DNA from: a candidate division WOR-3 bacterium
GTDB lineage: Bacteria; SDB-A
Direction: 5' to 3'
NCBI GenBank assembly: GCA_016934535.1
Contig: JAFGSQ010000016.1
Span: forward strand, 70,685 to 134,684
Length of the DNA stretch: 64,000 bases
A program made the translations under genes and the position numbers. Positions within the stretch are counted from its first letter, which is position 1. Each line of letters begins with the position of its first letter. Below the pieces are notes generated by a model. The model did not search any database. It was not told where the DNA came from and worked only from the letters and a program-made list of their open reading frames with translations. Positions 21,089 through 42,425 of the stretch are shown in pieces.

Positions 21089-22699
21089 TTACAAACCGAA
21101 CCAAACAAGCACTGCGTCGTAAATAGAAGCGATAGGTTCGTAATTAACCGCATCCCACTGCATGACTCTTCCTCCAAAACTAAAGGAAACAGATTTTATA
21201 TCCATCGACGGATTAGAATGAAAAACTCCAATCGGAGTTTCAGTCCATGGAACAGGTCCTATCCATTTGTAGATAACTGTAATATTTGGATCGGAAGTTC
21301 TTAGGTTTTCAACATAAGCTAATGCTGGATATACAGGTGGAATGTTATGAGTCATTTCAACATATAAAGTGTCCTGAGGAAGTCCGTATGTCGAAGCATA
21401 ACTGCTTGGAGCTGCTCCATCGAGTACCCAGTTTCCTGAACAATTCGTATAATATTCAACTCCCAGATATTTTTTTACAATAGTACCGCCAATACCGAAA
21501 GTATCAAGCTGATTAAAGAAATTCAAACCAAATGTCCACAACCTTCCACCGCAGTTAAGATAATCTTCAAGCGCCAGAGTATCTCTCGAAAAACCTGAAA
21601 TAAATGTACTCGGATCGTCGCGTACATAAATAACAAGCTTGGCGTTTTTGAGACTGTCTTTGGGTAAGACTCCACTATTTCTGTTAATGAATCTCACAGT
21701 TGTGTTGGGTCTTATTGTGTTGAAAAGGTCCACGTACCAGTTAAGATTATTATAAGTTTGGGTTGTTGCCATCAAAACGAGTATTTCTCCAGCATCAAGA
21801 TTCGGATTTATTGTTCTGAACGCTAAAGAATCTACGTTGCTTTGGACATGGGATGCATTTCTGCCCTGTAAATAAAAAACGTGCAATCCATCATTCAGGT
21901 TCTGGGTCACTGTAATAAACGAATCACCTGCTGTGTTCGGATTCATATCGGTCCATTCTGACCAGATGTCATTATCAATTTTATATCTATACCCGATAGG
22001 CATGTTCCATTCTGGATTGAGCGTATCAATTCTACTCCACCAGAACTGCAGGCCTTTCCATGACGGTGTGCTGTGATCAAGATAAAACATTACCGGTGTG
22101 TCTGTTTTGAACCAAAAATATGGCCTTGTTTCATCGTAATATTTTAGCAGACCAGAGTTTAAATCGTTTGCCATAGTGTCCGGTGGTACAATTTCTATCA
22201 CCGGTTTTTCACTATAAACACTCCATCCTCTTTGAGCTGGCATCGGATCTCTCATACCTTCGTCGTCGACAGCTCTGACGTAAAAATATCCCCTAAAATG
22301 CCATATCTCTCGGACATCGTAAAATGTGTCCGGTACTATTATTACCGTGTCAACAATTGTGTCGAGTACAATTAGCGAATCCGGGACATCGTCGACCGTA
22401 AGTTTCATCGTGTCGCTCGAAGCGAAAATCGAGTCCCAGCCTGTAATTTGGGAAGGATTGACTGAATCTCCTGACACAAACCATTCGTAATAAGCAACAA
22501 CTCCGTCTTCGTCTGTACCGTACCAATAAACCAGAGAAACAGCATTTATAGTGTCTATTCCGGGCGGTACATTGACGATGTAAGTTTCGGGCGGTTTGTT
22601 CTGATTAAGAGATCCAGTTGGGGCTGTGCTGCAACCCAACCAGAGTCCGGCGGCCAAAGCGGCCAGGACGAATAAAGTAGCAATAGTTGTTTTTCTCAT
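21089..22699 (-). CDS. large hypothetical lipoprotein (third gene of the three-lipoprotein operon)
   Basis: It has a lipobox (LWLGCS), is 536 aa and is rich in W/Y/N/D. I recognise no family. Confidence 0.55.
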   Translation of the reverse strand: MRKTTIATLFVLAALAAGLWLGCSTAPTGSLNQNKPPETYIVNVPPGIDTINAVSLVYWYGTDEDGVVAYYEWFVSGDSVNPSQITGWDSIFASSDTMKLTVDDVPDSLIVLDTIVDTVIIVPDTFYDVREIWHFRGYFYVRAVDDEGMRDPMPAQRGWSVYSEKPVIEIVPPDTMANDLNSGLLKYYDETRPYFWFKTDTPVMFYLDHSTPSWKGLQFWWSRIDTLNPEWNMPIGYRYKIDNDIWSEWTDMNPNTAGDSFITVTQNLNDGLHVFYLQGRNASHVQSNVDSLAFRTINPNLDAGEILVLMATTQTYNNLNWYVDLFNTIRPNTTVRFINRNSGVLPKDSLKNAKLVIYVRDDPSTFISGFSRDTLALEDYLNCGGRLWTFGLNFFNQLDTFGIGGTIVKKYLGVEYYTNCSGNWVLDGAAPSSYASTYGLPQDTLYVEMTHNIPPVYPALAYVENLRTSDPNITVIYKWIGPVPWTETPIGVFHSNPSMDIKSVSFSFGGRVMQWDAVNYEPIASIYDAVLVWFGL

Positions 22700-22714
22700 T
22701 TTCCCCCTCCTCGA

Positions 22715-23719
22715 TTACGGAGCCGCAAAATAATAAATCGAAGTGTGAAGAGCTATTCCGATAGCGGCCTGATACTGCGTTGACACATCGATGTATCCTC
22801 TTCTGCCCGACGGAGTGTGTCTTTGGAACCTTATTTCATAAACGTTGTTCTGTGCTCCTCTTATTTCGTCCATGATTCCCCAGACGCTCCCCATTGAAAG
22901 CTGATACTGATAATAGGCATCGGTGCCGAGAGACAACTGTTCGATGTTAGCCGTGTCGGGATTGTCACTGAACTTCAGAAAATATATCGGAACTCCTGCG
23001 GCGTTCGCGGCGTTTATCACAGCCTGTCTGTCTAATGGATCCTCATTATTAACACCGTCACCAAAAACTACTATACCTTTGTTTCCGCTCTGCCCCTGAA
23101 TCTCAGTTATCGCTCTATTTACGCCCCTGAACATTGCACTTCTCCCCCAATAGCTCGGGAAATCGGCTCCGGCTTCAAGAATCGTTATCGATTTCGTGAA
23201 ATCGGTTATGAGTGTGTCATAACTGTGGAATCCGATGATTGCTATGGAATCTCTGGGATCTTTCCAGTTTATGAAACGTTTGATGTATGTTGTTATGGTT
23301 GCATCGTAGGAGGCGACTGACGAAGACATGCTTCTCACAAGAACAATTGAATTGTAATCGTTTCCGCCAGTAGTGTTCAGCGTCCTCATAGTCATATCAT
23401 TGAAGAGAACGGCGTTAGTGTCTATGCTGCCGTCAGGTCTGTAAGACATTTCACGGACAGTGAAATTCGCTTTGTTGAGATTTTCGACGGATATATTTTC
23501 CTGCGTCTTAACGCTCACTCTCACTATTACGTCACCGCCCGAAAACTCGATGCCGAGAATCGAAGTTGTAATGCCTGTAGTCGAGCTGTCGTCTCTGTTT
23601 ATATAAGGAGGAATTGTTGGCGGTTGATCGATAACGCTTTTCGAGCAACCGGCGAAAACAGTCAAAAGCGAAATCAGAAACGTCAGAGATGTAAAAATTG
23701 TTCTGCCATTTATTTTCAT
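22715..23719 (-). CDS. lipoprotein with a vWA-like domain (degenerate MIDAS)
   Basis: It has a lipobox (FAGCS). The vWA-like alternation of strand and helix motifs is present (IVLVRSMSSS, IAIIGF, IVVFGDGVNN, VPIYFLKF), but the DxSxS Asp is replaced by Arg. Confidence 0.45.
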   Translation of the reverse strand: MKINGRTIFTSLTFLISLLTVFAGCSKSVIDQPPTIPPYINRDDSSTTGITTSILGIEFSGGDVIVRVSVKTQENISVENLNKANFTVREMSYRPDGSIDTNAVLFNDMTMRTLNTTGGNDYNSIVLVRSMSSSVASYDATITTYIKRFINWKDPRDSIAIIGFHSYDTLITDFTKSITILEAGADFPSYWGRSAMFRGVNRAITEIQGQSGNKGIVVFGDGVNNEDPLDRQAVINAANAAGVPIYFLKFSDNPDTANIEQLSLGTDAYYQYQLSMGSVWGIMDEIRGAQNNVYEIRFQRHTPSGRRGYIDVSTQYQAAIGIALHTSIYYFAAP

Positions 23720-23732
23720 CTGGTCCTCCGTA

Positions 23733-24677
23733 TTAATACACGTATCTGAGTTTGGGAACGGGTTGATAGTTCCAGCGGAAATAAATCACGGCTGAATCCA
23801 AATCACTTGCCGGAGGAGACATATATATGCTGTCTACGCTGATCTTCAGATACCGTTGCATCGTGCTCTGCAACCAAACAATGTCTCCCATGACGATAGG
23901 AGTTGTATACAAATACTGGTCTCCTATCGGAGCTATCCTAAGCTCAGCCCAGCTGGAATCAGAACCGACATTATAAATACCTGCTTGTTTTCCTCCGGAA
24001 AACGGCGGATTGAATGCGGAATTTATCTGAAGGAATGCGAGGGCTGTATCGGTTACAATAGTTGTATCGTAAACCCATAAAGTGTCAATGAATGTAGAGT
24101 CTATTATGAAAACGGTAGTGTCTATTCTGTCCAACGAGTCGCACGGATCGTACAGGTACACTTCGGCAATTGAGTGTAGCTGGGAATTTCCGAAACCGAT
24201 GACTTCAAATGTATTTTCATCCCATATCGCGGCAAAATTTCCGTTGAGTCCGTATGCGACCATGTGGGAAGAACCGGATTTTGTAGTTGTGCTGACCCTG
24301 CCGACTGTATCTGCGGACCAGACATTCCCGCTGCTCTCTCTCGAAAAAAGGACAGTATACGTACCAAGCTGTTGTGCGTCGTTGAGCGTCCAGCTGTTGA
24401 AATAAGTTGTGTCGCCGCTGACGACTTCGTATGCCGGGAATACAGTGTCTATAGTGTTCCCGAAAATTACTCTGTATCTTCTCGCCTGGGTTATTATGTC
24501 CCATGTGAATTTGACGCCTAGACCGTCGGTAGTAGTGCCCTGAGCGGCAAAATGGTAATCAATCACTATGGTGCCTTCGTGTCGCTTCCCTTCGTCCAAA
24601 GGAATAGTCGAACATCCCACGAATATGAACATCACCAGGAAAACGGCAGATAGTATAAACCCCGTTTTTCTAACCAT
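23733..24677 (-). CDS. hypothetical lipoprotein (first gene of the three-lipoprotein operon)
   Basis: It has a lipobox (FVGCS). I recognise no family. Confidence 0.5.
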   Translation of the reverse strand: MVRKTGFILSAVFLVMFIFVGCSTIPLDEGKRHEGTIVIDYHFAAQGTTTDGLGVKFTWDIITQARRYRVIFGNTIDTVFPAYEVVSGDTTYFNSWTLNDAQQLGTYTVLFSRESSGNVWSADTVGRVSTTTKSGSSHMVAYGLNGNFAAIWDENTFEVIGFGNSQLHSIAEVYLYDPCDSLDRIDTTVFIIDSTFIDTLWVYDTTIVTDTALAFLQINSAFNPPFSGGKQAGIYNVGSDSSWAELRIAPIGDQYLYTTPIVMGDIVWLQSTMQRYLKISVDSIYMSPPASDLDSAVIYFRWNYQPVPKLRYVY

Positions 24678-25695: not shown

Positions 25696-27540
25696 GTGCG
25701 ATTTGATAAAAAATACGGATTTTTGCTTTCGTTTCTTTTTTTTATGTTGCTGAACGCGACTTTTTACCTGGCCACTGTAGCTCCGGGTCTGACGTTCATT
25801 GATTCCGGAGAACTTACCGCCTGCGGAGCGCTTTACGGCATTCCTCACCCGACGGGATATCCGCTATATTCGCTTTTTGTCAGAATTTTCATCTCTTTGA
25901 CTTCCGTTTTCAAAGTTGAAGCGGATATTGCTTCAAATCTGTTTTCGGTCCTCTGCGCCTGCCTGGCGGGCGCAGTTTTGTCTTCATCCCTGCATAGAAA
26001 AACCGGTTTTATTCCGGCCCTGATTTTAGACATTCTCCTTTGCTTTCATCCGATCGTGTGGTCGGCGGCTACAGAAACTGAGGTTTACGCTCTTACTCTC
26101 CTTCTTTCATCAACGCTTCTCGCCGTATTTTTGAACACTCCGAAAAAGAAATACTATCTTTCTTTCTCTTTACTTCTATCTTACATGTGCGGACTTTTTT
26201 TGGGAAATCATCTCATGATAGCCGGATTTGTATTACCTCTGCTCTTTTATTCAGCCCTGAGGCTCCAGAGAAAAAAAAGATTTTTCGCCTTTTTCGCCAT
26301 TGTCGCCGCTGCAGCAGGCGCCAGCATATATTTGACAATCTACTACAGGTCTATGTGCCCACCGCCCCTGGATTGGGGCGGGACTTCGCGAGGATTCACC
26401 CAGCTTTTTTATCACGTGACCGGAAAGCAATATCAGGTCTGGATGTTTTCAAAGGGTGCCCTCGGTTTCTTGTCCGCTCTTTCAAATCTTCTTAAATTTA
26501 TTTTCATAAATCCGTTCGCGCCTCTTTATCTTCTCGCAGTCCCCGGGATCATGCACCTTTACAGAAAAAACAGGCCTTTACTGTTCATTCTGCTGGCGTG
26601 CTTCGGTCTCAACCTTGCCTACGCTTCCTCATACAGCATACCGGACATATCAAGCTATATGATTCCTTCAGTAACGGTCATAGCGGTTCTCTGTGCTTTC
26701 GGATCATTTTGGCTTTTTTCAAAAAAATCCGCTCGGTTTTTTATCGCGGTGGTTTTGATCCTCGCCGTTTTTCCGATGTACAACGGATTCAGAAAAGAAG
26801 ACAAAACAGGTCTTTTTCTCGCCGAGGACTACGCTCTTTCCATACTCTCTTTTCTTCCGGAATCGTCGGTTTATCTCGTAAACTCCCCCGGGGCTCTCGC
26901 CTGGGAGGAAGTATCTCCGATCATATACTTTCAAAGCATTAAAATGCACAGAACAGACGTCACGGTAATCGACAAAGAACTTTTGCGGAGGTCGTGGTAT
27001 GTGATTTGGATAAACTCTGAAAATCCTGATCTTGCGGAATCATGGCCGAATGAGTACAACAGTTTCCTGCTTCTTCTGACCGCCTGGGAGAAAGGAGACG
27101 AAGTGGACACAGGCTCTCTTCAGAATGCTTTTGAAAATTTGATTTTTGCCCTTTACAGATACGGAAAAAGCCGTGGCGGATTTTTCATTTCCAATCCGCC
27201 TTCCGGAAAGTTCACGGCACATCCCGATCATGACCTGAGAAAATTATCCGAAGTCTCGTTTTTGCCTTACGGTTTTTTCTTCACGGACGACAGCTCGGCA
27301 GATGACTCGCATATTTGGAAATCACTGACCTTGAGGCCTGTTCCCGGAAATTTGTCCCGTAACGAAAGAGTCCTCATGATAACGGGAAACATCAAACAAT
27401 CCGCCTGGAGAAAGGTTTACAGAATCAATATGGAAAGCGGAGGGAAGTTCACTGAGAAGTCACTTCCCTACATCGAATTCATTATCAAGCTTGATCCGGA
27501 GGATACTCTGGCGTCTGGAATCATGAATCGGTTTTACTGA
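25696..27540 (+). CDS. DUF2723 / TMEM260-like polytopic membrane protein (GT-C fold, putative polyprenyl-P-sugar-dependent glycosyltransferase)
   Basis: The N-terminus (FIDSGELTACGALYGIPHPTGYPLYSL) is characteristic of DUF2723. It has about 11 TM helices followed by a soluble C-terminal domain of about 200 aa. Confidence 0.7.
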   Translation: MRFDKKYGFLLSFLFFMLLNATFYLATVAPGLTFIDSGELTACGALYGIPHPTGYPLYSLFVRIFISLTSVFKVEADIASNLFSVLCACLAGAVLSSSLHRKTGFIPALILDILLCFHPIVWSAATETEVYALTLLLSSTLLAVFLNTPKKKYYLSFSLLLSYMCGLFLGNHLMIAGFVLPLLFYSALRLQRKKRFFAFFAIVAAAAGASIYLTIYYRSMCPPPLDWGGTSRGFTQLFYHVTGKQYQVWMFSKGALGFLSALSNLLKFIFINPFAPLYLLAVPGIMHLYRKNRPLLFILLACFGLNLAYASSYSIPDISSYMIPSVTVIAVLCAFGSFWLFSKKSARFFIAVVLILAVFPMYNGFRKEDKTGLFLAEDYALSILSFLPESSVYLVNSPGALAWEEVSPIIYFQSIKMHRTDVTVIDKELLRRSWYVIWINSENPDLAESWPNEYNSFLLLLTAWEKGDEVDTGSLQNAFENLIFALYRYGKSRGGFFISNPPSGKFTAHPDHDLRKLSEVSFLPYGFFFTDDSSADDSHIWKSLTLRPVPGNLSRNERVLMITGNIKQSAWRKVYRINMESGGKFTEKSLPYIEFIIKLDPEDTLASGIMNRFY

Positions 27541-40655: not shown

Positions 40656-42425
40656 TCAGTAACGGTTGAATTTTCTGCTGAAAGTCGCCTGTCCTATCCT
40701 GGCGAGCACGAAATAACTTCCCGCCTGGATTCCCTCTCCAATATCCTCTGATAATAAGTGGTGTCCCTCCGAATACCTGCCTTCAGCGACGACATAGACG
40801 CTTCTTCCTGTGACGTCAAAAATCTTTACTGAAACGTCGGTCATCTCAGTGAGAGAGAATTCGACTCTCAACAATCCCTCCGAAAAGACGGACGCGAATT
40901 CCACCTGCGCCGGAACGACAGTGACAGGCATCTCTTCAACGGAATTAATTTCGTAAGACACGGTGTAGAATCCTTCCGGAGCCGTGTAGGGATCCCTTTC
41001 GGTCCTTCCGGAGGAGTCTGTCGCCTGGATAAAGTAATCAATAACAGCAGTGTCGTCGGCGACCGGTTGAGGCAAAATACACCAAAAACTGTCGGGAAAG
41101 CCGGTTACCCTCTCCATTGTCTCAAAATTTTCAAAAACGCTGTCTCCGTGGAACTTCCACGCGAAAAACACCTGATCGCTTATTACGCCTTCGCCGCTGT
41201 AATCATGGACGAGAGCGCGGATTCTCAGTTCGAAAGGATCTATACCGGGGTCGTGATCTACAAAAAGCATTCCGGGGTCGAAAATAGCCATAGTCCTGCA
41301 GTGGATGGCGTCTGTGGGTTCAAAACTGTAATCCGTATAACCTACTGCGTCGTAACCGGGCATCTCCCTCTCGTAAAAGTTGATCGCGGCAGTGTCGTAC
41401 AATGTATTGCCGGTCACCGGCACGTAGACTTTATTGTTGAGTATCAGGCTGTTGACGTAAGCGGCGTATATGCTATCAGGACAGTTGAGCCTGACGACCT
41501 CGTAATTTCTGCCGTAACAGTTTGTAAGAGTCGTAATGTAATTCGCGAGCTGATTGAGAGCGGCGTCGTCAACTCCGTTCCTTATGACGACAACTTTCTC
41601 TTCCGAAAGAAATTTAGCATAACAATCTATGTGATTTATGTAGCTTCCGAGCGGGTCGTTGAAAGTGTAATAGTTGGAAATTCCCCAGTAGGCGAGCATC
41701 AAAGCGTTGACCGAATCTACGGACAAAGACGGGTTGTCGTCTGAATATACGTTGTTGCTCGACATCGCTCTGCCGTGGCCGTCGCACATCATATTGCCGC
41801 CCGTGTGAGCGAGCATTGTTTTCCACAGTTTTATTCCGAGAGCCGGTGCGAGGTCCCAGTTGGACTCGTCGTCGTCTATCCTGCCGTGAGTGTATCTTCT
41901 GTTGTAGACGTGGTCTGAAATTCCCACTGAATCGTTTCCGTCGAAGACCGACCAGGGGCCGTAATCCCTCGTCCAGTAGCTGTTGGTTGGAGTCGAAACG
42001 AAAGTTACGTCGGAGAGAGAAATGCCGTGGCTCGTGAAAGCCGACTGGGCGGACGAGACGTTGTCCGTAAGACAGGTGACGTGGAGATCCTGAGCGAGAT
42101 CTGATATAAGATTCCACGGCAGTCCGACGGGATATCTTATGAGAACGGAAACCGCCGGTTCCCACTCGGCGCACATCCTGACGGGCGCGGCGGGAGGATC
42201 GGTCGGCACAACGGGATCTTTTCCCATGGAAGGATAATATTCAGGCAGAAGCGGTTTTAAAGGGCCTGGATCGTGAGGAGGATGATTGACAGACATTCCG
42301 TCGACGATTAGTTCGGCGAATTCTCCGGAAAACGGCCCTTCTTCATGTCCGGGTATCCAGGTATTCGCGGAAGTGAGTACAATTGTCAGAACGAATATTA
42401 AAAACATGTCACCTTCCTTTTTCAA
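40656..42425 (-). CDS. secreted agmatine deiminase / Porphyromonas-type peptidylarginine deiminase (PPAD) family enzyme with a T9SS-type C-terminal sorting domain
   Basis: It has a signal peptide and the guanidino-modifying motifs WTRDYGP, GGN..DG.G, HID and IHC (catalytic Cys). The last 75 aa or so (VSVKIFDVTGRSV...GSYFVLARIGQATFSRKF) match the Por secretion tail pattern. Confidence 0.65.
   Translation of the reverse strand: MKKEGDMFLIFVLTIVLTSANTWIPGHEEGPFSGEFAELIVDGMSVNHPPHDPGPLKPLLPEYYPSMGKDPVVPTDPPAAPVRMCAEWEPAVSVLIRYPVGLPWNLISDLAQDLHVTCLTDNVSSAQSAFTSHGISLSDVTFVSTPTNSYWTRDYGPWSVFDGNDSVGISDHVYNRRYTHGRIDDDESNWDLAPALGIKLWKTMLAHTGGNMMCDGHGRAMSSNNVYSDDNPSLSVDSVNALMLAYWGISNYYTFNDPLGSYINHIDCYAKFLSEEKVVVIRNGVDDAALNQLANYITTLTNCYGRNYEVVRLNCPDSIYAAYVNSLILNNKVYVPVTGNTLYDTAAINFYEREMPGYDAVGYTDYSFEPTDAIHCRTMAIFDPGMLFVDHDPGIDPFELRIRALVHDYSGEGVISDQVFFAWKFHGDSVFENFETMERVTGFPDSFWCILPQPVADDTAVIDYFIQATDSSGRTERDPYTAPEGFYTVSYEINSVEEMPVTVVPAQVEFASVFSEGLLRVEFSLTEMTDVSVKIFDVTGRSVYVVAEGRYSEGHHLLSEDIGEGIQAGSYFVLARIGQATFSRKFNRY

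Follow-up and report, generated by a model that had tools for sequence, protein, structure and literature searches.

The DNA analysed here, a 64-kb stretch from a candidate division WOR-3 bacterium (in the following: the window), carries on its minus strand a gene whose product, judged from sequence comparison and a structural model, is a full-length architectural homologue of the Porphyromonas gingivalis peptidylarginine deiminase (PPAD) and not an AguA-type agmatine deiminase. An earlier sequence-only reading had described a secreted enzyme of the PAD_porph type that modifies guanidino groups and has a Por-type tail, and had named PPAD as the best parallel; sequence, fold and residues support this description. 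The choice between agmatine deiminase and PPAD had been left open there, and the same comparisons support the PPAD type. We consider it fairly probable that the protein is a PPAD-type, cysteine-dependent arginine deiminase, which is secreted by way of a T9SS-type export route and acts on peptides ending in arginine.

The open reading frame of 589 amino acids noticed in the sequence-only reading is found in the ORF listing at exactly 40656 to 42425, stop codon included, on the minus strand and with a TTG start, and all the motifs that had been quoted are present in the translation (SYWTRDYGPW, GGNMMCDGHG, INHIDCYA, DAIHCRTM, VKIFDVTGRSV and GSYFVLARIGQATFSRKFNRY). Residue numbers refer throughout to this 589-residue frame, with the TTG at 42425. 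The ATG at 42407 (Met7) is the likelier start, since a Shine-Dalgarno-like GGAAGG (42412 to 42417, minus strand; read from the sequence, its function predicted) is located 4 nucleotides upstream of it, and since the deposited protein MBN2363174.1 (583 amino acids, candidate division WOR-3), which is 100% identical, starts at the same codon. Listing, NCBI identity and start context together give a preferred coding sequence from 40656 to 42407 on the minus strand, with 583 amino acids and the stop codon. The Shine-Dalgarno-like sequence lies at the recD2 stop codon (42411 to 42409), a position which suggests that the deiminase gene may be co-transcribed and translationally coupled with recD2. 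In the WOR-3 clade the gene has a conserved context, downstream of dapB and recD2 in a housekeeping operon, and orthologues with 91%, 73% and 56% identity share the same chromosomal context. Housekeeping genes were also found in the approximately 5 kb past one edge of the window. The gain from our analysis is modest, as the protein was already deposited and recognisable; what is added is a sharper classification. Its NCBI name, 'agmatine deiminase family protein', is probably wrong as to the substrate.

The family named in the sequence-only reading was recovered with the PAD_porph profile: PF04371 matches residues 84 to 380 with 100.2 bits against a cutoff of 25 (E=1.7e-28), thus far above chance. 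The top sequence matches in the PDB are PPAD crystal chains (E=2.4e-72 for 4yt9), which align with query residues 75 to 486 and thereby with the catalytic and the Ig domain; the identity to PPAD is 36% over about 400 residues. The AlphaFold model of the full protein has a mean pLDDT of 85.3. In the Foldseek comparison it superimposes on the PPAD structures 4ytb, 4ytg and 5ak7 with TM scores of 0.90-0.92 and an rmsd of 2.0-2.3 Å over 425-434 columns, comprising catalytic and Ig-like domains, whereas agmatine deiminases reach TM scores of only 0.71-0.80, for the catalytic domain. Scores on the aguA equivalog models are low, with 32.7 bits for TIGR03380 (cutoff 381.8, about twelve times the score) and 31.7 bits for NF010070 (cutoff 483); an agmatine-deiminase-family comparator reaches 230-240 bits on these models, likewise under the cutoffs. 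Known agmatine deiminases (E. faecalis 2JER, C. jejuni 6B10, H. pylori 3HVM and A. thaliana 1VKP) have PF04371, the propeller and the Asp/His/Asp/Asn/Cys set in common with the WOR-3 protein, but they are single-domain enzymes with neither Ig domain nor sorting tail. In addition, the two types differ in short motifs, with N-[AG]-W-G and T-[DN]-x-H in agmatine deiminases against N-R-x-R and [YG]-I-x-H in the PPAD type, a difference which holds for N-[AG]-W-G and T-[DN] in five agmatine-deiminase-family comparators (three solved, two putative). The motifs N-[AG]-W-G and T-[DN]-G-H-[VI]-D are absent from the query, which has N-R-R...R and Y-I-N-H-I-D instead.

The roles of the catalytic and clamp residues of PPAD have been established by structures and mutants (PMC4893104; PMC4487231). 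All catalytic residues are conserved in the WOR-3 protein, as the sequence-only reading had supposed: Asp154, His265, Asp267, Asn325 and Cys376 correspond to PPAD Asp130, His236, Asp238, Asn297 and Cys351. By alignment the clamp for the substrate alpha-carboxylate is kept as well, with Arg176, Arg182 and Tyr262 in the places of PPAD Arg152, Arg154 and Tyr233, and Trp151 and Ile263 in the pocket wall correspond to W127 and I234. Catalytic pentad, Arg-Arg-Tyr clamp and Trp/Ile pocket wall are therefore identical to those of PPAD; the clamp is missing in the five agmatine-deiminase-family comparators. A peculiarity of the query is an insertion of 4 residues between the two clamp arginines, located within RYTHG (residues 177-181), and insertions of 4-5 residues are present at this place in the WOR-3 clade.

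The order of the segments is the same as in PPAD (4YT9, 4YTB, 4YTG, 5AK7, 5AK8 and 6I0X): putative signal peptide, N-terminal extension, propeller, Ig-like domain and probable sorting domain. A putative Sec signal peptide was recognised by inspection at residues 7-20 (42366 to 42407, minus strand; MFLIFVLTIVLTSA, followed by N), with the hydrophobic core FLIFVLTIVLT and T-S-A at -3 to -1. The AlphaFold model predicts a helix at residues 5-20; a basic n-region is absent if the ATG start is used, and the signal peptides that relatives have in this position are canonical. Residues 21-74 (42204 to 42365, minus strand) form a disordered N-terminal linker or possible pro-region, with pLDDT below 50 over residues 21-65, in which an HPPHDPGP motif is conserved in the clade and Pro49 is nearly invariant in the alignment. 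By analogy, this region may be likened to the PPAD pro-peptide. The catalytic alpha/beta-propeller domain comprises residues 75-395 (41241 to 42203, minus strand), as indicated by PF04371, the match to 4yt9, the residue mapping, pLDDT values above 90 and Foldseek. It is followed by an Ig-like beta-sandwich domain at residues 396-495 (40941 to 41240, minus strand; pLDDT above 90), which is equivalent to the IgSF domain of PPAD, is aligned with PPAD up to its residue 458 and lies within the superposition on the PPAD crystal structures. A flexible linker (residues 496-509, 40899 to 40940, minus strand; pLDDT below 50 over 497-506) leads to the C-terminal seven-strand beta-sandwich at residues 510-589 (40659 to 40898, minus strand), which is probably a divergent type-A T9SS sorting domain. 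The WOR-3 enzyme, known from sequence, differs from PPAD in its clamp insertion, its longer disordered N-terminal region, its more divergent tail and its location in a housekeeping operon. It also differs in its source, which is an uncultured environmental bacterium and not a host-associated member of the Bacteroidota.

The activity, substrate preference, export route and physiological role that we infer from these features would be the following. A Sec signal peptide would take the protein across the inner membrane, where it would fold into a five-bladed alpha/beta-propeller packed on the Ig-like domain, and a T9SS-type pathway, addressed by the C-terminal seven-strand domain, would carry it through the outer membrane, either to the surface of the cell or into the medium. 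In the active site, Asp154 and Asp267 would hold the guanidinium group of the substrate, and Cys376, aided by His265 and Asn325, would attack its central carbon; ammonia would leave and hydrolysis would then yield citrulline. Arg176, Arg182 and Tyr262 would bind a free alpha-carboxylate, and thus a peptide's C-terminal arginine should be the preferred substrate. Free L-arginine would probably be a substrate as well, agmatine and internal arginines would not. The role of the enzyme might be the processing of Arg-ended peptides from extracellular proteolysis, with release of ammonia and removal of charge.

For the C-terminal domain, the sequence-only reading had proposed a Por secretion tail. 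Its homology to type-A sorting domains holds, but its scores stay below the curated cutoffs: 14.2 bits against 27 for PF18962, and 17.9 bits for the whole protein or 22.4 bits for the isolated domain (E=8.9e-5) against 23 for TIGR04183. The latter profile matches 20 of the 21 aligned family tails, some of them strongly (4.7e-13), and the query tail is in register with these tails. Seven strands are predicted over residues 510-588, with pLDDT values of 85-94 in the full model and 90.8 in a model of the C-terminal domain (CTD) alone. Similar to the type-A CTDs of RgpB, PorZ and RemA, the tail is an 80-residue seven-strand sandwich that follows a linker and forms the extreme C-terminus, and it contains the conserved blocks D-x-x-G-R-x-V and G-x-Y-F. 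Compared with many relatives it is without the N-terminal PNPF block, and its last residues are KFNRY, where K-[ILV]-[ILV]-[ILV]-[KR] is usual. A fold search with the CTD alone gave a TM score of 0.67 to the translocon-bound RemA-CTD (8gl6_D), but it returned generic Ig-like sandwiches only, with E values of 1.2e-3 or worse, and does not discriminate. Since this fold is generic, a seven-strand sandwich is necessary but not sufficient for T9SS cargo. When only the tail was used to look for homologues, in a search that required three shared 5-mers, there were no matches, which is uninformative either way.

The PPAD-type family is large, with many hundreds of members in several candidate phyla. 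An Ig-like domain search of 1.84 billion representatives gave 6,504 matches, which we rejected as a measure of family size because this domain is a common tandem repeat in giant proteins. In a distant branch, a PPAD-like gene lies at most 6 kb from a C25 or M14 peptidase gene in 16 of 63 distinct metagenomic loci. It is usually located directly downstream of the peptidase gene and on the same strand, and the density falls with distance; this linkage was observed only among relatives that are 34-40% identical to the WOR-3 query. A single C25 neighbour (locus L016) was compared with the PDB and is Arg-gingipain-like: it matches RgpB with E=3.6e-89 and keeps H211, C244 and the S1 Asp163. An identification of the C25 neighbours as the sortase PorU was rejected, since NF033707 gives 52-84 bits against a cutoff of 420 in six of the seven tested, the remaining one (L073) has no PorU match, and the L016 protein matches PorU with only 4.5e-4, compared with its RgpB match. 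By analogy, these gene neighbourhoods might be seen as mirroring the gingipain-PPAD partnership, and an Arg-specific endopeptidase as neighbour fits a PPAD-like substrate, because such cleavage would generate C-terminal arginines. Near the deiminase gene of the WOR-3 clade, no C25 or M14 gene was found in the window and the syntenic loci. Two further candidates for conserved partners were rejected: the neighbours of about 500 amino acids in L085 and L086 are TPR-repeat proteins, their similarity coming from the repeats, and the OTCace-family gene directly downstream in L090, considered as a link to citrulline or carbamoylputrescine, has an aspartate carbamoyltransferase signature and is found in no other locus. 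Its motifs STRTR, HPTQ and LHPFPR are those of what we take to be an aspartate carbamoyltransferase (PyrB).

It might also be that the enzyme is as proposed and that its C-terminal sandwich is not a T9SS signal but an Ig-like module for surface anchoring or binding, with the protein being periplasmic or exported in another way and WOR-3 possibly having no T9SS. The scores under the cutoffs and the unspecific fold search fit such a module. In some relatives a dockerin stands where the CTD would be, showing that the C-terminal module is exchangeable. Components of the T9SS machinery (SprA/Sov, PorV, PorU and GldK/L/M/N) were found neither in the window and the approximately 5 kb past one of its edges nor in the syntenic or related loci L003, L085, L086, L088, L089 and L090, and a CTD profile derived from the family detected no second CTD-bearing protein in six-frame translations of the window and the syntenic loci. 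However, these roughly 70 kb are only a few percent of a genome. According to the NCBI taxonomy, WOR-3 (Caldifarciminota) is placed outside the FCB group, and our literature search for T9SS in WOR-3 or Caldifarciminota found nothing; together, these two points make T9SS export slightly less well founded. Against the anchoring module stand the register with the family tails, most of which match TIGR04183, a WOR-3-labelled relative (P0017) which passes both PF18962 and TIGR04183, and the position at the extreme C-terminus behind a flexible linker, as in known cargo. We therefore regard the anchoring module as unlikely, and T9SS-type export of the WOR-3 deiminase as the route to which the sequence of its tail points.

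The same chemistry and fold could also serve free extracellular L-arginine as the physiological substrate, making the protein a surface arginine deiminase whose products, citrulline and ammonia, would supply nitrogen or control the pH. PPAD is reported to be active on free L-arginine too, the clamp reads a free alpha-carboxylate, which is present on free arginine, and the WOR-3 gene is without a peptidase neighbour. On the other hand, genes of the wider family are repeatedly the immediate downstream neighbours of genes for Arg-gingipain-like and M14 peptidases, a placement that favours peptides as substrates, and no citrulline-utilisation gene is linked, the carbamoyltransferase-family gene of L090 being the only neighbour of this kind and not recurring. 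We thus see the use of free arginine as its main substrate as rather improbable. Much less probable still is a secreted agmatine deiminase converting agmatine to N-carbamoylputrescine. It has in its favour the shared PF04371, the weak partial matches to the aguA models and the NCBI name, but the TIGR03380 score is far below even that of the comparator, the query has R-x-R and Y-I where [AG]-W-G and T-[DN] would be expected, and neither a putrescine carbamoyltransferase nor a carbamate kinase gene was found nearby. By its fold, too, the protein is much nearer to PPAD, and it has the Ig domain that is absent from agmatine deiminases (PMC4487231). For a gene in decay, or a binding protein without catalytic activity, nothing specific can be cited, the insertion in the clamp loop being the sole anomaly; the intact reading frame, the conserved catalytic residues and the confident model speak against it, and the orthologues at three levels of identity in one context indicate purifying selection, so that we regard this as extremely unlikely.

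The attention given to PPAD comes from its citrullination of host proteins and its implication in rheumatoid arthritis. It has been called unique among microbes (PMC4487231), and its homologues have been said to occur only in P. gulae and P. loveana (PMC13539308; PMC10394638). For its origin, it was proposed that PPAD arose in the P. gingivalis lineage by the addition of two domains to a single-domain agmatine deiminase (PMC4487231). That the whole PPAD architecture, including the clamp for C-terminal arginine, is present in a distant uncultured phylum, within a family of this size, points to an origin that is older and environmental, and to the citrullination of extracellular peptides as an activity that is ordinary among microbes. 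A wider proposal is more tentative, and we offer it as a possibility that is on the whole doubtful: that the WOR-3 enzyme acts extracellularly on C-terminal arginines of peptides, that PPAD is a late twig of an old environmental family which in many lineages is wired to Arg-gingipain-like and M14 peptidases, and that CTD-dependent export exists in WOR-3. If this were true, the genes would represent a module for extracellular protein scavenging, which cuts after arginine and then neutralises or trims the new C-terminus. CTD-dependent (T9SS-type) export would then operate in Caldifarciminota/WOR-3, a phylum for which it has no prior description in the literature searched. Among the matches listed, other environmental relatives are nearer to PPAD than the WOR-3 protein, with up to 52% identity, and clamp and HCR motif are present in all 120 of 120 relatives.

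Our analysis supports the assignment of the gene at 40656..42425 (minus strand) to an enzyme of the type of the Porphyromonas gingivalis peptidylarginine deiminase (PPAD) and not to the agmatine deiminases. The sequence-only reading had proposed PAD_porph membership, which the Pfam search bore out with a PF04371 match at residues 84-380 (100.2 bits, cutoff 25). PF04371 takes in agmatine deiminases and PPAD alike, therefore four separate comparisons were used to tell them apart. The NCBIfam agmatine deiminase equivalog model TIGR03380 gave 32.7 bits against a cutoff of 381.8 for the protein of the window and 50-58 bits for three further PPAD-like relatives; the agmatine-deiminase-family protein of Parasphingorhabdus (L002) reached 230 bits, which is also under the cutoff. 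Among all PDB sequences the best matches were five distinct P. gingivalis PPAD chains (E=2.4e-72 to 1.9e-70), with query residues 75-486 pairing with chain residues 5-415 and both the catalytic and the Ig-like domain spanned; the next entry, 1xkn, followed at E=1.7e-13. The AlphaFold model, built with 75 family sequences (mean pLDDT 85.3, >90 across the catalytic and Ig-like domains), matched the PPAD crystal structures with a TM of 0.90-0.92 (rmsd 2.0-2.3 Å, 425-434 columns), whereas agmatine deiminases reached 0.71-0.80 over the catalytic domain only. In the residue comparison, five agmatine-deiminase-family sequences, L002 among them, showed N-[AG]-W-G, T-[DN] and HC[VSI] where the PPAD type has N-R-x-R, [YG]-I and HCR, and at each of these discriminating positions the query agrees with the PPAD type. 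Thus, where the earlier reading had left both families open, the PPAD side held in all four comparisons, and an agmatine deiminase identity was rejected on the model score, the lower TM and the discriminating residues.

With PPAD numbering derived from the alignment (offset 43, verified), PPAD Trp127, Asp130, Arg152, Arg154, Tyr233, Ile234, His236, Asp238, Asn297 and Cys351 correspond to Trp151, Asp154, Arg176, Arg182, Tyr262, Ile263, His265, Asp267, Asn325 and Cys376 of the query. Crystal structures and mutants have shown that catalysis in PPAD is carried out by Asp130, His236, Asp238, Asn297 and Cys351 (PMC4893104; PMC4487231), and all five are kept in the query (Asp154, His265, Asp267, Asn325 and Cys376). 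Arg152, Arg154 and Tyr233 of PPAD clamp a C-terminal arginine by its free carboxylate (PMC4893104; PMC4487231), which explains the action of this enzyme on the C-termini of peptides. Unlike PPAD, the WOR-3 clade has 4-5 extra residues between the clamp arginines (RYTHG, VDTHG, ADTHG and similar). The disordered residues 21-74 (42204-42365), between signal peptide and catalytic domain, contain an N-H-P-P-H-D-P-G motif that is conserved in the clade, and Pro49 in this region is nearly invariant across 75 relatives. By analogy with the N-terminal pro-region of PPAD, this segment may serve as a pro-peptide or plug the active site.

PPAD has been described as unique among microbes (PMC4487231), and its homologues are said to occur only in P. 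gulae and P. loveana (PMC13539308; PMC10394638). The PPAD-type family is much broader than this literature assumes. At E 1e-5 or better, our search for homologues found 1,276 clusters; agmatine deiminases may be present among the weaker ones. All of the 120 best of these 1,276 are 517-877 aa long, and in them PAD_porph occurs together with Por_Secre_tail, FlgD_ig or, in a subset, a dockerin; their named sources are WOR-3, Eisenbacteria, Krumholzibacteriota, Latescibacterota, Gemmatimonadota, Zixibacteria and Bacteroidetes MAGs. The arginine clamp and HCR are kept in every one of these 120, some of which share up to 52% identity with PPAD over the full 410 solved residues; the protein of the window, with 36%, is among the more distant. 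A metagenome scan confirmed at least 561 additional relatives. Proteins of this type are already present in the sequence databases, one of them (P0078) even under the name 'peptidylarginine deiminase'. The finding is of interest mostly because the family is large and taxonomically broad and is linked to gingipain-like genes, and less for the gene of the window alone.

Architectures vary within the family (P0009-P0012, of 874-877 aa, and P0048, P0056, P0080, P0107, P0114 and P0115). In one subgroup about 300 additional residues separate the Ig-like domain from the tail, and another subgroup, including a Zixibacteria-labelled protein, carries a dockerin instead of the T9SS tail; the module for C-terminal targeting can therefore be exchanged. 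The Ig-like domain (residues 396-495, 40941-41240) is not restricted to PPAD-type enzymes: its profile matched 6,504 representative proteins, 1,703 of them at E 1e-10 or better, and in the top matches (P0121, P0137 and others), giant proteins 2,000-7,100 aa long, it occurs in as many as 40 tandem copies. Pfam offered no good model for it, returning diffuse GlgE_dom_N_S and Big_7 matches.

The neighbours of the PPAD-like genes were clustered in 72 loci, which gave 63 distinct groups after near-identical loci were collapsed. Pfam identified gingipain-family (C25) proteins, M14 zinc carboxypeptidases and one M6 peptidase; the gingipain-family proteins contain Propeptide_C25, Peptidase_C25 and the C25 Ig-like domain, and most have a T9SS tail. 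A C25 or M14 gene lies within 6 kb of the PPAD-like gene in 16 of the 63 groups. Upstream sequence of 2.5 kb or more is available in 41 groups, and in 12 of these such a gene directly precedes the PPAD-like gene on the same strand. The density of these genes falls with distance, the values for consecutive 2-kb bins being 0.80, 0.36, 0.19, 0.11 and 0 per 10 kb. The PPAD-like gene is found directly downstream, on the same strand, of C25 peptidases (L016:543-2951, L009:779-3133, L055:16-2571, L058:4699-9720, L064:6209-9691, L073:5224-9657 and L077:4978-9924) and of M14 carboxypeptidases (L018:2164-4509, L033:5583-7940, L047:2582-4861 and L037:91-1938); in two loci C25, M14 and PPAD-like gene are serially arranged. 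The C25 peptidase of L016 matched the Arg-gingipain RgpB (E=3.6e-89) and the RgpB pro-domain (4.9e-37) far better than Lys-gingipain (2e-15). His211, Cys244 and Asp163 are conserved in its alignment with RgpB; in RgpB, Asp163 is the S1 residue contacting the P1 arginine. An identity of the C25 neighbours with the T9SS sortase PorU was rejected, six of seven tested scoring 52-84 bits with NF033707 (cutoff 420) and the L073 protein giving no match.

This linkage resembles the cooperation in P. gingivalis, in which Arg-gingipain uncovers C-terminal arginines that PPAD then citrullinates (PMC9559808; PMC4487231). It independently supports peptide C-terminal arginine as the family substrate. No description of this linkage was found in the searchable literature. 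The peptidase-linked loci, with 34-40% identity to the query, belong to a distant branch, and C25, M14 and M6 genes are absent from both the window and its syntenic relatives, so it is the conserved active site alone from which we infer this substrate for the WOR-3 enzyme. The full mechanism proposed for this enzyme appears moderately probable to us.

The Por-type tail of the earlier reading stood as a homologue but stayed under the curated cutoffs. In the whole protein, PF18962 gave 14.2 bits (cutoff 27) and TIGR04183 17.9 (cutoff 23); residues 505-589 scanned alone reached 22.4 bits with TIGR04183 (E=8.9e-5, cutoff 23). Twenty-one family tails align with the query tail in register, and 20 of them match this model (best E=4.7e-13). 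Query and family share the blocks D-x-x-G-R-x-V and G-x-Y-F; the query tail is without the PNPF block that many relatives have, and its ending, KFNRY, is unusual. Following a disordered linker, a sandwich of seven strands is predicted both by the full model (pLDDT 85-94) and by the model of the CTD alone (90.8). When the tail was searched by fold on its own, the matches were all generic Ig-like sandwiches (E 1.2e-3 or worse), and the CTD of the T9SS substrate RemA (8gl6_D) in tenth place (TM 0.67) is consistent but not diagnostic. We assign the tail to the type-A sorting domains, as a divergent member.

No T9SS component was detected among ten envelope or unknown ORFs of the window (Pfam) and ten unknown ORFs (NCBIfam; four in both sets), nor in the precomputed Pfam calls for the syntenic 22-kb locus of the 91% relative, and the family CTD profile revealed no second CTD protein in the window. 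WOR-3 is now Caldifarciminota in the NCBI taxonomy and is not nested in the FCB group; our literature search found no paper tying the phylum to T9SS. P0017, a WOR-3-labelled relative, passes both CTD models (PF18962 and TIGR04183), and given this protein a matching secretion system likely exists in the phylum. The deiminase of the window would then be exported by a T9SS.

A 589-aa ORF fills 40656..42425 exactly, and the coordinates and all motifs of the earlier reading were recovered in its translation. The protein is identical to MBN2363174.1 (583 aa, 'agmatine deiminase family protein [candidate division WOR-3 bacterium]', encoded on a 136-kb contig), which starts at Met7 of the 589-aa ORF. 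We prefer this start, ATG 42407, because a GGAAGG Shine-Dalgarno site lies 4 nt 5' of it, with the recD2 stop codon (42411-42409) between the two, and the sequence upstream of TTG 42425 has no comparable site. GC content around the gene is not unusual. The minus-strand run reads dapB, recD2, deiminase, rhodanese, rlmN, trpS, exbB, exbD, tonB, tolB, pal, and the order dapB-recD2-deiminase is kept in L003 (91%), L001 (73%), L085 (56%) and L090 (56%); the gene is therefore stably inherited on the chromosome in the WOR-3 clade and not a recent import. Far upstream, a sigma-70-like site at 46093-46065 (minus; 12/12 consensus, TTGACA, 17 nt, TATAAT, extended -10 TG) precedes the run containing dapB, recD2 and the deiminase. 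A 10/12 site with TG (42546-42518) lies in the recD2 3' end, about 110 nt before the deiminase start, and no terminator-like hairpin was found 3' of the gene. L001 (CAYNIW010000002.1) has the gene order of the window (thrS ... dapB, recD2, deiminase, rhodanese, rlmN, exbB) and was deposited as 'uncultured Desulfuromonadaceae bacterium' although it carries the 73%-identical orthologue in this order; probably the MAG is mislabelled or the contig mis-binned.

Elsewhere in the window, three consecutive predicted lipoprotein genes (21089-24677, minus; 536, 334 and 314 aa), each with a Cys after a hydrophobic leader, had no match in Pfam; in NCBIfam, the second of them gave a weak VWA-domain match below threshold. 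At 25696-27540 (plus) a 614-aa membrane protein contains a TMEM260-like protein O-mannosyltransferase domain (PF11028, 57.7 bits), an annotation uncommon in bacteria.
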